Under the pieces are notes generated by a model. It was not told the origin of the DNA. It did not search any database and saw only the letters and a program-made list of their open reading frames with translations. A stretch of 64,000 nt of DNA from Candidatus Multivoradales bacterium (lineage in GTDB: Bacteria > Acidobacteriota > Thermoanaerobaculia > Multivoradales > JAHEKO01). Positions 28,709 to 41,419 of this stretch are shown one piece after another (the stretch's first letter is position 1; every line of letters begins with the position of its first letter). Made by a program: the position numbers and the translations under genes. The DNA is taken from assembly GCA_965223855.1 (NCBI GenBank), contig CBDCXM010000009.1, positions 448,001 through 512,000 of the forward strand. The letters run 5' to 3'.

Positions 28709-30856
28709 TCAGGCGAGAGCGAGTCGCGGCTTCTCTTCCGTGTCCGGTTGCCGGCGCTCGGCGGGCAGGCGGACGCGCACCCGCGCTCCGCCCTCATCGC
28801 CGTTGGTGAGCCGCAGCCGGCCGCCGTGGTCCTCGACGATCCGCTCGACGATCGCCAGTCCGAGCCCCAGCCCCCCGGGGCGCCGGGAGAAGAACGGCTC
28901 GCAGCCGCGCTCGAGCGCCTCGACGCCGAAGCCCCTGCCCTGGTCGTGAACCGTGGCGTCGACCCAGAGATCGCCCTCGGCGTCCTCGTGGGTACCGGCC
29001 ATGACCGAGACCGTCGAGCCGGGTGGGGAATGCTGGAGGGCGTTCGAGATCAGATTGGAGAACAGCGACACCACCGCCTCACGGTTCATCGGCACGACGG
29101 CGTCGTCGAGCTCGAGCTCGAGTTCGAGTTCGACCGCGACCCGAACCTCGGCTGCCAGCGGTGAGCAGTCCTCGGCGGCGCGCTCGATCACCTCGTGGAG
29201 ACTGCCGTCCTTGCGCTCGAGGCCCGCCGAGCGGCCGTAGGCGAGCAGCCCGTTCATCAGGTTCGTCATCCGATCGACCTGCGATCGCAGGCCGTCGAGA
29301 TAGGGGCGCAGGTCGGTGTCGTCGGCGAAGCTCGCCCGCATCGCGTCGAGAGTCGCGGAAACCCCGAACAGGGGGTTACGCACCTCGTGGGCGACACCGC
29401 CGACGAGTGCGCCGATCGCCGCCAGCTTCTCGCCGCGGCGCAATGAGTCCTCGAGCTCGACGACCTCGGTCGCGTCCTGGAGCACCAGCACGACCCGCTC
29501 GTCCCAGAAGCGCCTCGTGAGCGTCGCGGTGAGCTGCCAGTAGCGGGTCTCCGACGAGGTCGTGCGGTGCATCGACTGACCCCGCTCCTCGGTCTCCTGA
29601 ACCGCCTTGACCAGCTCCGCAGCCGTCTCCCACGGTTCTCCCTCGAGGGAACCGAGTCTTCGCCCCTTCACCTCGTCCCACGGCAGGGTCGCCAGTTGCT
29701 GTGCCGCGCGGTTGAGGCGCCGGATCCGCCCCAGGGTGTCGAGGATCAGCACCGGCGACTCGACGGTGTCGAAGGTCACCTGCCACTCCTGAGCGACCTG
29801 CTGAATCACCCGGCGTAGCGACTTCTCGCGCTCGAGCGTCTTGCGCTCCGAGATCTCGAGCACCATGCCGGAGACGAGCTGCAGGCGGCCCTTCTCGTCG
29901 AAGATCGGCTGGCCGCGCTCCTCGACCCACGACCACTCGCCGTCGGCGTTGCGAATGCGGTAGTCGACGACGTAGTCGGTCCGCTCGAGCACCGCCAGGT
30001 CCTTCTTGGAACCGACCGCTGAGCGGTCCTCGGGGTGACAGAGGTCGAGCATCGTCTTGAGCTCGTCCGAGAGCTGATCGACGGAGCGCCCGGTCATCTC
30101 CTCCACCGACCCGCCGAGGAAGAGGATCCGCGGCTCGACTCCCGGCACCGAGAGGTGGACGATGCCGGGAACGTTGTCGACCAGCGTCCGGAACTGACTC
30201 TCGCTTTCGCGCAGCTTCCGCTTCGAGCTCCAAAGCGACCGCGATGCGCGCGCCGCCAGCGAAGCGACCACGAAGAGCAGGGACACGGTCACCAGCGTCA
30301 CGATCACCTGGGTACGCCACGGTACCGGTCGGGCGCCCATCAGCTCGTGGTGCGGGAGCCAGCCGACCTGCTCGGCGACGACCATCAACGTGAAGGCCAG
30401 CGAGCACATGCCGGCGACGAGGAACGGCATCCGGGCGCGGCCGAGAAAGCCCGCATAGGCGATCAGTGCGGCGTAGATCAGCGTCAGGTTGGTCGCCTCG
30501 ATGCCGCCCGAGAAGTGGATCGCCGCCGTGTAGCCGACGATCTCCAGCGCATGCACGACGAGCGACCAGGCGATCACTCCTCCGCGGGTCGAGAGCCGCC
30601 GCAGCACCAGCAGCGTCGGCGGATTGATGGCGATGACGTACAGCAGCGCGGCGCTGATCCCGAGAAAGCTCGTCGACGGCAACACCCCGAACATCTGCGC
30701 GGCCACCGCCGCGAGCCACATCACGGCAGCGGCTCGCGACCGCACCATCGCCGCATGAGCGAAGCGGCGGTAGATGCGTTCCTGGTCGGCGGCCCTCAGT
30801 TGGCGGCGCGACGCCGTCTGCGAGTTGGGGTCGAAGCCCTCGAAGTCGTAGCTCAC
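28709..30856 (-). CDS. Membrane sensor histidine kinase (6 TM, two PAS, HisKA, HATPase)
   Basis: H-box AHEVRNPL, N-box NLISNALQH, DQGRG, PFFS, GLGLGLAIV; PAS HPEDR..YRIR. Confidence 0.93.
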   Translation of the reverse strand: MSYDFEGFDPNSQTASRRQLRAADQERIYRRFAHAAMVRSRAAAVMWLAAVAAQMFGVLPSTSFLGISAALLYVIAINPPTLLVLRRLSTRGGVIAWSLVVHALEIVGYTAAIHFSGGIEATNLTLIYAALIAYAGFLGRARMPFLVAGMCSLAFTLMVVAEQVGWLPHHELMGARPVPWRTQVIVTLVTVSLLFVVASLAARASRSLWSSKRKLRESESQFRTLVDNVPGIVHLSVPGVEPRILFLGGSVEEMTGRSVDQLSDELKTMLDLCHPEDRSAVGSKKDLAVLERTDYVVDYRIRNADGEWSWVEERGQPIFDEKGRLQLVSGMVLEISERKTLEREKSLRRVIQQVAQEWQVTFDTVESPVLILDTLGRIRRLNRAAQQLATLPWDEVKGRRLGSLEGEPWETAAELVKAVQETEERGQSMHRTTSSETRYWQLTATLTRRFWDERVVLVLQDATEVVELEDSLRRGEKLAAIGALVGGVAHEVRNPLFGVSATLDAMRASFADDTDLRPYLDGLRSQVDRMTNLMNGLLAYGRSAGLERKDGSLHEVIERAAEDCSPLAAEVRVAVELELELELDDAVVPMNREAVVSLFSNLISNALQHSPPGSTVSVMAGTHEDAEGDLWVDATVHDQGRGFGVEALERGCEPFFSRRPGGLGLGLAIVERIVEDHGGRLRLTNGDEGGARVRVRLPAERRQPDTEEKPRLALA

Positions 30857-31551
30857 GCAACCCCCGCGAGGACGAACGCCTTGTCGCGTTCCGAGCCCCA
30901 GAAGAGCGAACGGGTGCCGGAGAGTGTCGCCCCCTCCTCGTCGCGTGTCCAGCGGACCTCACCGACCATCAGGCAAGGGTCGCTCGCCTTTGGCGGGTAG
31001 ATCAGGAAGGCTGCGAACTGGTGCTCCGGCAGCTCTTCGTGTGTGAGGAACGAAAGGCCGTGCTCGGAGATGTCGCGCAGCGACGCCCGTCGGGGGTTGA
31101 GCTGCGCAGCGGTCAGATCGGGGATCGACAGCGGGATGTAGTCGACCCGCCAGTCGACCGGGAAGCGCTCGGGACGCGGCAGGTGCGAGGCTCTGTCGAG
31201 CACCGTATCGCGCACCATCCCCGTGAAGTCCTCTCCCGAGAATGGCTTGTCGAGAACCGCCGCGAAGAGCTCGAGGTCGGTGTCAGAGAGCTTGCGGCGG
31301 TCGGCCGTCACCAGACAGACCGGCAGCTCCGGATCGATCGCCCGCACCTTGCGGGCGAGGTCCGCGCCGTTCCAGACCGGCATGTCGAAGTCGGTGACGA
31401 CGAGATCGAACGAGCGGCTCACCACGCGCTCGAGTGCCTTGCGCGGATCGGTGGCGGTCGTCGCGTTGCCCCCCTCCGCCTCGACGAAGTCAGCGAGAAG
31501 GCGACCGACGTACGGGTCGTCGTCGACAACCAGAATCGACTTCGTCTTCAT
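30853..31551 (-). CDS. Response regulator, REC + PilZ-like domain
   Basis: ATG 31551 with GGAGG; ILVVDDD, VTDFDMP, KPF; C-terminal RPERF and DISEHG, GEVRW. Confidence 0.85.
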   Translation of the reverse strand: MKTKSILVVDDDPYVGRLLADFVEAEGGNATTATDPRKALERVVSRSFDLVVTDFDMPVWNGADLARKVRAIDPELPVCLVTADRRKLSDTDLELFAAVLDKPFSGEDFTGMVRDTVLDRASHLPRPERFPVDWRVDYIPLSIPDLTAAQLNPRRASLRDISEHGLSFLTHEELPEHQFAAFLIYPPKASDPCLMVGEVRWTRDEEGATLSGTRSLFWGSERDKAFVLAGVA

Positions 31552-31660
31552 TCGCCCTCCGAAACCCCATACCGGCGAAACCGTGAGCCGCTCCCCCCAG
31601 GTCGACTCTTCGCTCGGTAACGCCAAGGATACAACCTCCGCATGCTCGAATCGTCCGTCT

Positions 31661-40072: not shown

Positions 40073-40078
40073 ACGCGT

Positions 40079-41419
40079 CTAGAAGTCGGACGGCTCGAGC
40101 TCGTACTGCTTGATCTTCTGGTAGAGCGTGCTGCGCGCCATCCCCAGGCGCCGCGAGGCGGCGGTCACGTTGCCGTTGACCTCGGCCAGCACGCTCTCGA
40201 TATGGCGGCGAACCACGCTGTCGACCGACTCGTCCTCGGGCTCCGTAGGGGTCGTCGCACCGCCCAGTCGGAGGTCGCGCCTGCGGATCCGGCCGCCCTC
40301 CTGAAGGAGCGCCGCGCGCTCGAGGACGTTCCTGAGCTCCCGGATGTTGCCGGGCCAGCCGTAGCCCTGGAGGGCGTCGAGCGCGTCGTCCGACAGCGTG
40401 ATGCCGTCCGCACTTCGAGGCCCATGGACGCGATCGAGGATCTCCTGCGCCAGCACCGGCAGATCCTCGACACGCTCGCGCAACGAGGGGACCCTCAAGG
40501 GAAAGGTGCTGAGCCTGAAGTAGAGGTCCTCCCGGAACTCGCGCTCGGTGACCATTGCCGCGAGGTCGCGATGGGTCGCGGCGATCAGCTGCAGGTCGGC
40601 TCGGCGCGTCTGGGTCTCGCCCAGGCGACGGAACTCGTGGCCCTCGATCACCTTGAGCAGCTTCGGTTGCACGTCGAGATCGAGATCGCCGATCTCGTCG
40701 AGAAAGACCGTGCCGCGATGCGCCGTCTCGAGAAGTCCTTCCTTCTGCGTGCCGGCGCCGGTGAAAGCACCGCGCGCATGGCCGAAGAGCTCGCTTTCCG
40801 CCAGCTCGCGCGAGAGCCCGGCGCAGTTGAGGTCGAGGAACGCCTCCTGGGCGCGCGGACCGTTTCGATGAAGCCAGCTCGCCAGCACCCCCTTGCCCGA
40901 GCCCGTCTCGCCCTGGATCAGGATCGGGCTCCGCGCCTCGAGCACGCGGTGAGCCTCCTGCTCGAGATCCTCGATCGCCGCGCTCGAGCCGACGAACGGA
41001 TCGAGGGCGCGCTTGCGCCTGCGGGTCCGCTCCACGCGCTCCACCTGGCGGCTGCGGCGGTTGTCGAGCGCCCGTTCGACGATCACCAGCAGCGCTTCGA
41101 GCTCCACCGGTTTGGTGAGGAACTGCTCGGCGCCTTCCTTGATCGCCCGCACCGCGAGGTCGATCGATCCGTGGGCCGTCAGGATGACGGTCGGCAGATG
41201 CGAGCCGCCACTCTGGAGACGCTCGAGCAGCTCGAGTGCGTCGCCGTCCGGCAGCTTGTAGTCGAGCAACGCCAGGTCCGGCCGCCGGTTCTCGAGCTGC
41301 GCCACGGCGCTCGCACAGCTCTCCGCTTCGAGCACCTCGTAGCCGTGGTGCTCGAAGAATCTCCGGATTCCGAAGCGGATGACCTCTTCGTCATCGACCA
41401 GCAGGATCGTGTTCTTCAT
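40079..41419 (-). CDS. NtrC-family sigma54-dependent response regulator (REC-AAA+-Fis HTH)
   Basis: LLVDDE, LLDYKLP, GETGSGK, ESELFGH, GAFTGA, LDEIG, FREDLYFRL, WPGNIREL, C-terminal HTH. Confidence 0.96.
   Translation of the reverse strand: MKNTILLVDDEEVIRFGIRRFFEHHGYEVLEAESCASAVAQLENRRPDLALLDYKLPDGDALELLERLQSGGSHLPTVILTAHGSIDLAVRAIKEGAEQFLTKPVELEALLVIVERALDNRRSRQVERVERTRRRKRALDPFVGSSAAIEDLEQEAHRVLEARSPILIQGETGSGKGVLASWLHRNGPRAQEAFLDLNCAGLSRELAESELFGHARGAFTGAGTQKEGLLETAHRGTVFLDEIGDLDLDVQPKLLKVIEGHEFRRLGETQTRRADLQLIAATHRDLAAMVTEREFREDLYFRLSTFPLRVPSLRERVEDLPVLAQEILDRVHGPRSADGITLSDDALDALQGYGWPGNIRELRNVLERAALLQEGGRIRRRDLRLGGATTPTEPEDESVDSVVRRHIESVLAEVNGNVTAASRRLGMARSTLYQKIKQYELEPSDF

Follow-up and report, generated by a model that had tools for sequence, protein, structure and literature searches.

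A tryptophan-tailed subtilase family and a double-propeller sensor as recurrent neighbours at a cyclic di-GMP and sigma-54 locus of an acidobacterial genome

A 64-kb stretch of the genome of a Candidatus Multivoradales bacterium (G000:C9:448001-512000; source genome 4.52 Mb; hereafter 'the window') contains a block of six genes, all on the minus strand at positions 28709-41419, in which an exported protease of the S8 (subtilase) family with a tryptophan (Trp)-repeat tail is encoded beside a membrane-bound double beta-propeller sensor with a diguanylate cyclase output. The window has a G+C content of ∼69%, and the titles of its nearest public relatives point to metagenome-assembled genomes (MAGs) of the Acidobacteriota/Thermoanaerobaculia. 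The adjacency of protease and sensor, the outputs of the sensor and the promoters at such loci all recur in other genomes, so that the protease, the propeller sensor, the turnover of cyclic di-GMP (c-di-GMP) and sigma-54 control are a functional set that recurs, and they do not lie together by chance. It is tentatively proposed, as the reading that we favour at less than even confidence, that an exported Trp-tailed protease encoded just upstream of a sensor of the hybrid two-component system (HTCS) type generates a cue which the sensor detects and converts into c-di-GMP. An initial annotation of the window had described the six co-oriented genes and their domains, the gaps between them, a palindrome and a sigma-54 promoter, and all of these were found in place when Pfam and the sequence itself were consulted; the motifs of the proteins (GAFTGA, SGDEF, EAL, GGDEF with an I-site, the lipobox and the repeat tail) likewise agree with its description. 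It had further presented the block as a candidate undescribed system. The link between protease, propeller sensor, c-di-GMP and sigma-54 does recur, in keeping with that proposal, but the signal path that had been drawn through the system is not supported by comparison with other genomes.

Adjacency of the protease and the propeller sensor

The protease gene lies at 31661-34327 on the minus strand (the open frame extends to 34345) and encodes a Peptidase_S8 domain (PF00082, 168 bits) with a complete catalytic triad and the oxyanion Asn. The 20 relatives that were aligned all have the His (HGTH), the Asn (AGND) and the Ser (GTSQA), and at least 90% of them have the Asp (DTG). The protein is ordered as a lipobox (LTAC), a conserved N-terminal segment of ∼90 amino acids that is likely to be a propeptide, two jelly-roll inserts of ∼160 amino acids, the catalytic domain and the tail. 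The neighbouring gene (34418-37813, minus strand) encodes six Reg_prop matches and a Y_Y_Y domain, which together form a periplasmic sensor (residues ∼41-815), followed by a transmembrane (TM) helix (∼821-840) and a cytoplasmic GGDEF domain. When a profile of such sensors was compared with the PDB, the sensors of the Bacteroides HTCS proteins were recovered at E values of 1e-171 (4A2L, over the whole length) and 1e-155 (3V9F). The propeller protein was nevertheless rejected as an HTCS in its own right, as its only output is GGDEF and the kinase, receiver (REC) and AraC parts are missing; it is the sensor domain alone that is homologous.

Relatives of the protease were collected in a scan of one genome per species, in which loci were chosen solely by protease similarity; 557 relatives were confirmed, and the best 72 loci were kept for counts. 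These fall in the Acidobacteriota, the Gammaproteobacteria, the Chloroflexota and two further MAGs, one labelled Gemmatimonadota and one Acidimicrobiia; the gammaproteobacterial hosts include Woeseiaceae, Steroidobacteraceae, Cellvibrionales and an isolate, Thalassomonas sp. RHCl1. A relative of the propeller sensor is present in 31 of the 72 loci, and where at least 4 kb of downstream sequence is available it lies downstream on the protease strand in 24 of 50; in three more of those 50 it has another position, either upstream or, in L050, on the opposite strand. The geometry is tight: the median distance from the catalytic domain to the start of the downstream sensor is 540 nt, or ∼2.3 kb where a GGDEF-EAL gene intervenes, such that the sensor gene follows either directly on the last protease gene or after a single GGDEF-EAL gene. 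The sensors that adjoin proteases share 38-59% identity with that of the window over ∼790 residues. Since the source genome has only two such propeller sensor genes in 4.5 Mb, adjacency by chance would be expected at far below 1%. The protease-sensor pair was also seen in 8 of 20 stretches from related genomes. Within a set of 41 related genomes, which are not independent so that the figures describe a pattern and are not a test, the protease was matched strongly (E<=1e-100) in 15, of which 14 have the sensor, versus 11 of the other 26, and many of the pairs are adjacent by their coordinates.

The initial annotation had put forward co-occurrence in other genomes as one means of judging the system. 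By that measure the c-di-GMP and sigma-54 parts hold alongside the sensor, with GGDEF or EAL genes in 27 of the 72 loci and a sigma-54 AAA+ domain in seven; the kinase TM domain and the PilZ domain of the window do not, as they are found at one locus only, on a contig of the congener G003. Among Acidobacteriota and Gammaproteobacteria of sediments the module is frequent, and the protease paralogues in it are often numerous and arranged in arrays. No other recurrent partner was seen among 50 neighbours of 14 sensor-less loci; single such loci carry an EAL-only gene (L038) and a GAF-GAF-HD_5 gene (L102).

The tryptophan-repeat tail

The tail of the window's protease (31664-31876, minus strand), as read from the sequence, consists of seven hexapeptide units (DGYLWG GGYLWG NGYNWQ KDFLWP DGYLWG NGYLWG NGYLWG) with a Trp every six residues, and then ends in SITSWVPQE. 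Across the family the tail is ∼100 residues long with 9-13 Trp at six-residue spacing; the unit can be written as [GAST]-[YFML]-x-W-x-[DNGQ] and the end as [ST][IV]N-x-W-V-x-Q-E. Tails were assigned to the family when ∼100 amino acids C-terminal of the S8 domain held at least six Trp at six-residue spacing and an NxWVxQE-like terminus. Both features are found in 89 of the 121 S8 reading frames of the 72 loci and in the window's protease. No Pfam family covers the tail, with weak WXXGXW matches in 6 of 90 tails, and a search of the ESM Atlas with the tail returned unnamed clusters only, in one of which 16% of the members carry Hexapep (a weak lead). The tail-bearing subtilases are a large family without a catalogue entry. 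The catalytic domain with its tail (residues ∼455-888) matches many paralogues in the same bacterial family, at up to 22 matches per genome.

Variation within the family is considerable. The unit differs among paralogues (GYLWGN, GFLWSD, GYIWPD, GFAWAD and others) around a fixed G, W and D/N, and at G019:C190:276000-294000, L103 and L050 the tail-bearing S8 paralogues form tandem arrays with 6 to 10 or more members, every one of which has its own repeat unit. In the cultured Thalassomonas sp. RHCl1 (L075, contig 1-15117) a gene for a 1034-residue REC-GGDEF-sigma-54 activator comes after a tandem run of five S8 genes that encode such tails. A minority of tails (L035:12301-13632, L035:15135-16229, L049:6651-7799, L077:20-934, L086:11803-13041, L103:5047-6255 and L103:14459-15691) end in L-x-L-x-D-D in place of NxWVxQE, an ending that could mark an alternative C-terminal form within the family. 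At the other end of the protein, inspection by eye showed Sec-type signal peptides, followed by the conserved N-terminal segment, in the majority of 17 N-termini of relatives; the lipobox was rejected as a trait of the family, as a strict pattern recovers it in 5 of 99. The two ∼160-residue repeats of the window's protease (32980-33985; residues ∼115-450) give weak Reelin_subrepeat-B and MAM-like matches and occur also in very long frames of relatives, for example a 6880-amino-acid frame in G022.

Units of the window's tail that are identical as peptide differ at synonymous sites, the DNA repeat being only 68% matched, and selection therefore acts on the peptide. Two AlphaFold runs gave no confident fold for it: with catalytic domain and tail of 20 sequences the tail had a predicted local distance difference test score (pLDDT) of 23-31, and with the last 120 residues (linker and tail) of 90 sequences the mean was 47.9 and the repeats scored ∼40. 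These runs give no evidence for or against a folded solenoid. A peptide that is conserved as such, that is predicted to have no stable fold, as would be the case for a linear motif array, and that varies in its units by paralogue and lineage around fixed residues might be a ligand in its own right; the gene that encodes it is the sensor's constant neighbour, and subtilases generally cut after large hydrophobic residues. On this account the sensor would bind the tail, either intact or cut into Trp hexapeptides, as a means of peptide self-sensing or quorum signalling. Tails of the same type are, however, found in nine Chloroflexota loci and many others that have no sensor, arrays of up to eight or more paralogues with different units stand beside a single sensor, and processing or export genes do not recur nearby, and so we regard self-sensing as quite unlikely. 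In its boldest form, in which the tail would be an encoded multi-copy signal across several diderm phyla, with the protease cutting its own or sister tails, the sensor reading the hexapeptides and setting both c-di-GMP and sigma-54 transcription, and the unit variants acting as dialects, the idea is very unlikely. A predicted complex of the sensor's periplasmic domain and the tail scored 0.00, which is no verdict and counts as evidence for neither side. As about half of the family has no sensor nearby, the tail must have a role that is independent of the sensor, such as attachment to a surface or membrane, self-association or control of the protease.

Sensor outputs and c-di-GMP turnover

In the window the propeller protein looks to be an active cyclase, as judged by its motifs, with GGDEF at residue 976, which fits the active-site motif GG[DE]EF of diguanylate cyclases, and the I-site RMPD, an optional feature of such enzymes, at 967 (five residues upstream). 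The gene before it (37838-39871, minus strand) encodes a weak REC match, a GGDEF domain and an EAL domain. Its receiver (25.8 bits against a cut-off of 30.2) has lost the acidic pocket (VVSRS, VLAE) and has Glu for Asp at the phospho-acceptor position, and its GGDEF domain reads SGDEF and has no I-site. The EAL domain (PF00563, 243 bits) has the motifs of a phosphodiesterase (EAL at 413 and DDFGTG at 534, with EGVE at 591 and QGF at 611 recognised by eye), so that this protein is likely to be a c-di-GMP phosphodiesterase.

Pfam analysis of the partner genes at other loci revealed three forms of output behind homologous sensors. In form (a), as in the window, the sensor is joined to GGDEF. In form (b) it is joined to HisKA-HATPase-REC-Hpt and is followed by a REC-(PAS)-GGDEF-EAL gene. 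In form (c) a single protein of ∼1500 residues combines Reg_prop, Y_Y_Y, PAS, GAF and Sigma54_activat; the two examples (L071:4419-8894 and L083:11259-15812) each lie directly downstream of a tail-bearing S8 gene, and we know of no precedent for a membrane-anchored one-component sigma-54 activator of this sensor-PAS-GAF-AAA+ form. Fusions of GGDEF with a sigma-54 activator are also found beside proteases, as REC-GGDEF in L075 and GGDEF-GAF in L098. The GGDEF-EAL partners of the kinase-type sensors have strong receivers in all five cases (75-93 bits; L035, L050, L086, L097 and L100), whereas those of the cyclase-type sensors have weak receivers or none (25.8 bits in the window, 23.7 in L106 and 37.5 in L089). 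This pattern fits a phosphorelay in form (b) that is dispensable in form (a).

The variety of outputs bears on the direction in which information flows. A c-di-GMP protein of the inner membrane, much of which is a periplasmic domain, adjoins a protease on the periplasmic side, an I-site is present, and the Trp array could be a multivalent docking motif; the locus might thus operate from the inside out, in the manner of LapD and LapG, with c-di-GMP bound at the I-site altering the propeller domain such that the protease is captured or released and the cleavage of surface proteins is controlled. Homologous sensors beside homologous proteases carry kinase or sigma-54 outputs, however, and these signal from outside to inside; nor does an adhesin that could serve as substrate recur in the loci. 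Inside-out control is accordingly considered highly improbable, and given that the kinase and activator forms exist, the propeller domain is argued to pass information from the outside to the inside.

Sigma-54 promoters and inverted repeats

A predicted sigma-54 promoter (TGGTACG-N4-TTGCT, TGGTACGtcccTTGCT) lies at 39971-39956 on the minus strand, ahead of the EAL gene. The scan used the consensus TGGCACG-N4-TTGCW, with GG at -24 and GC at -12 and the eight flanking positions scored; TGGTACGtcccTTGCT agrees at seven of the eight and is the sole match of at least 7/8 in the 64-kb window, the whole of the source genome having 26. The GG/GC spacing is that of a sigma-54 promoter, rpoN is present in the genome, and in G003 the predicted promoter is retained at the same place with GG and GC at the right spacing. 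At 40079-41419 (minus strand) lies the gene for an NtrC-type enhancer-binding response regulator (REC, Sigma54_activat, AAA_lid_14 and HTH_8 by Pfam), with the receiver Asp at D52, the Walker A motif GETGSGK at 170 and GAFTGA at 217. The acceptor Asp, the GAFTGA-bearing AAA+ domain and the Fis-type helix-turn-helix place it in the NtrC family of sigma-54 response regulators, and as its NCBIfam matches to NtrC and AtoC are below cut-off the subfamily cannot be named.

Two inverted repeats flank this promoter on its upstream side. The palindrome CCCTGTC-N-GACAGGG (39981-39995, minus strand), ∼10 nt upstream of the -24 element, is 15 bp long and by itself not beyond chance, with a match in 48 of 100 shuffles when two mismatches were allowed; in G003 this position is taken by another palindrome, CACAGGCCTGTG. 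The second repeat, GTCCGG-GAT-CCGGAC (40057-40071, minus strand), is found just after the stop codon of the activator gene and ∼90 nt upstream of the -24 element. Its counterpart in G003 (L013 ∼4735-4755) reads GTCCAG-CCG-CTGGAC; both arms have changed, and pairing or symmetry has therefore been kept. The repeat is a candidate for either an enhancer site or an RNA hairpin.

Sigma-54 signals are likewise found at the loci of relatives. The 72 loci (1.03 Mb) have 19 promoter matches of at least 7/8, which is about three times the density in the source genome (26 per 4.52 Mb). The protease strand carries 16 of these, and ten precede a match to the protease, the sensor or REC-GGDEF-EAL by no more than 800 nt. 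The congener G002 has two more, one before the protease and one before the sensor. The source genome has, in addition, a second cassette that is free of any protease (L106, G000:C8:33000-48000), in which genes for a GGDEF-GAF-sigma-54 activator (2992-6087), a Reg_prop/Y_Y_Y-GGDEF protein (7120-10638) and a weak pseudo-REC-GGDEF-EAL protein (10641-12389) follow the same logic as in the window; no sigma-54 promoter match of even 6/8 was found there.

Such promoters directly upstream of protease genes could be explained by co-regulation alone, in which the proteases would be scavenging genes at the output of a sigma-54/c-di-GMP circuit, with no share in producing the signal, and the cue for the sensor would be an unrelated one from a glycan or the envelope. 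The protease-free cassette in the same genome speaks for this, as do the many tail-bearing proteases that stand alone, and the solved members of the sensor family among the PDB matches are glycan sensors. Membership of a regulon needs no tight geometry, however, yet the sensor is downstream on the same strand in nearly half of the loci that could be assessed, across phyla and with all three outputs. We therefore think it unlikely that co-regulation is the whole explanation.

A kinase, a REC-PilZ protein and an activator particular to the genus

The last two genes of the block are of a different distribution. The REC-PilZ response regulator (30853-31551, minus strand) lies inside a longer, spurious frame (30853-32016) and starts at 31551 with MKTKSIL. 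Its receiver is intact, and the score of its PilZ domain (PF07238) is 25.2 bits, with the cut-off at 22.5. The DxSxxG motif is present as DISEHG, directly abutted by RASLR; only RPER stands at the usual upstream distance, and no canonical RxxxR was found in the protein at that distance (∼20-30 residues from DxSxxG). The histidine kinase (28709-30856, minus strand) has about six TM helices with short loops, followed by PAS_3, PAS_4, HisKA and HATPase_c, with the phospho-acceptor motif HEVRNP (H490) in HisKA. Its TM region gives a 6TM_PilS match below threshold (21.7 bits against a cut-off of 27), and its core is closest to AtoS in NCBIfam, again below cut-off. The start of the kinase gene overlaps the REC-PilZ stop by 4 nt, which suggests that the two proteins work together.

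A full-length relative of the kinase was found in one of 40 relatives, that of G003, and none is present in the congener G002 (97% complete). The sole orthologue of the activator that was found, 69% identical, is also from G003. At other loci the activators near the module score 246-276 bits against that of the window, whose 15 own paralogues score 254-293 bits, and as the neighbouring activators are no closer than paralogues the idea that the activator is an orthologue common to the module was rejected. With the kinase and the PilZ domain so rare and the activators not orthologous, the activator, the REC-PilZ protein and the kinase are an add-on in this genus. It is a reasonable supposition that the kinase would phosphorylate the activator.

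The initial annotation had, as a hypothesis, assigned these proteins the central part: the six-TM kinase, as in AgrC or ComP, would sense peptides from the tail and phosphorylate the activator and the REC-PilZ protein. The kinase does belong to the same putative operon and overlaps the REC-PilZ gene, its core and the activator come closest to AtoS and AtoC, respectively, and the set is kept in G003. That path is, however, not supported by the distribution just described, for the protease and its tail otherwise occur without such a kinase, and the tail tracks the propeller sensor. The comparison with AgrC and ComP fails on architecture as well. The core of AgrC is of the HPK10 type and that of ComP of the HisKA_3 type, each joined directly to a multi-TM sensor; the kinase of the window has a HisKA (PF00512) and HATPase_c (PF02518) core, preceded by two cytoplasmic PAS domains and a weakly PilS-like TM region. 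Sensing of tail peptides by this kinase is thus extremely improbable.

Limits of the unit

In gene order from the activator the intergenic gaps are 207, 24, 90 (with the protease ATG at 34327), 109 and -4 nt. The block is flanked by a resistance-nodulation-division (RND) efflux operon upstream and a gene of the fumarylacetoacetase family downstream. The whole gene set is kept in G003, where the downstream neighbour is the same gene and the upstream genes are others; the unit therefore extends from the activator through to the kinase, and the RND genes were rejected as a part of it. That operon (outer-membrane factor, membrane-fusion protein and AcrB-type pump; 41520-48180) shares the strand of the activator gene and stops 100 nt short of it. 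AcrB-type genes likewise adjoin a tail-bearing S8 gene in G018 (L024), which is probably a coincidence. None of the six proteins reaches an equivalog cut-off in NCBIfam. A consensus scan of the unit found no sigma-70-like promoter and one terminator-like site, which lies inside the propeller gene; shuffled sequences have more such sites, and the scan is uninformative.

A proposed mechanism

We infer that the EAL protein, the propeller cyclase, the protease, the REC-PilZ protein and the kinase are carried on a single transcript, which would be driven by the sigma-54 promoter. The protease, anchored on the periplasmic side, would cut an external or envelope substrate, and the propeller domain would read the products of the protease, as at the polysaccharide loci of Bacteroides. 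HTCS sensors read the products of neighbouring enzymes. With the exported protease as its constant neighbour, the sensor is most economically taken to read what the protease produces or exposes, and by analogy with those loci a product of an external or envelope substrate would be the first choice of cue. The cyclase would then raise c-di-GMP and the EAL protein would reset its level; at loci with the other outputs the cue would instead be turned into phosphorylation or transcription. In this genus, the REC-PilZ protein and the six-TM PAS kinase would be likely to couple phosphorylation of the NtrC-type activator to c-di-GMP or to a membrane signal, by which a feedback loop onto the promoter might be closed; as the activator gene is itself upstream of the sigma-54 promoter, the kinase alone could complete such a loop.

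Several points weigh against a sensor that responds to its protease neighbour. The solved relatives of the sensor bind sugars and not peptides, and, unlike at true polysaccharide loci, no transporter or substrate-uptake gene recurs in the loci analysed. Roughly half of the proteases with such a tail, those of all nine Chloroflexota loci among them, are without a sensor in the vicinity, and the counts make the support look stronger than it is, since the related genomes are not independent. For the window itself, co-transcription is deduced from gap lengths and the consensus scan, and the link between kinase and activator from their neighbourhood in two genomes only.

Significance and comparison with known systems

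If the protease does make the ligand of the sensor, the locus would be the first protein-directed counterpart of the logic of polysaccharide loci and would represent a new route of input into c-di-GMP signalling. The availability of a cultured host of the family, Thalassomonas sp. RHCl1 (L075), makes the question open to bench work.

The module resembles several known systems in part. Like NtrB/NtrC and AtoS/AtoC, the window combines an activator of the REC, GAFTGA AAA+ and HTH_8 type with a -24/-12 promoter and a HisKA-type kinase; it differs from them in the six-TM, PilS-like N-terminus of the kinase and the unusual REC-PilZ partner, as well as in the absence of any equivalog assignment. The catalytic domain of the protease has its closest solved structure in Tk-SP of Thermococcus kodakarensis (3AFG, E 7e-49; also 9UES), which has neither the Trp-repeat tail nor jelly-roll inserts between propeptide and catalytic domain. 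Disordered arrays of regularly spaced Trp that act in multivalent binding or self-association are reported from the eukaryotic proteins Nanog (WR region) and GW182, although these are unrelated in sequence and organism, the period in Nanog is five, and the likeness is an analogy only. PorZ has a double propeller of the same superfamily and works with a protease that handles C-terminal domains (PDB profile E 1.7e-16; NCBIfam PorZ match 88 bits against a cut-off of 260), but it is a surface protein of Bacteroidota without a signalling output, and the tail described here is not a type IX secretion system C-terminal domain.

The LapD/LapG system shares with the module an inner-membrane c-di-GMP protein with a periplasmic domain and a periplasmic protease. 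LapG is, however, a cysteine protease, and LapD has a degenerate GGDEF-EAL pair and a different periplasmic fold and works from the inside out, whereas the window's cyclase appears to be active and the outputs at sister loci are kinases or activators. The closest parallel is with the HTCS proteins of Bacteroides (4A2L/4A2M, 3V9F and 3OTT), in which two beta-propellers and a Y_Y_Y domain are matched over the full length and the sensor gene adjoins genes for extracytoplasmic hydrolases. Here the output is GGDEF, or elsewhere a hybrid kinase without AraC or a sigma-54 AAA+ domain; the neighbours are S8 proteases in place of glycoside hydrolases, SusC/D-like genes are absent, and the hosts are Acidobacteriota and Gammaproteobacteria. 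Neither the tail nor the protease/propeller-sensor module was found described in the result listings and opening lines of abstracts that full-text searching returned. Every part of the module comes from a known family, and it is their combination with an uncatalogued Trp-repeat tail that is apparently undescribed.

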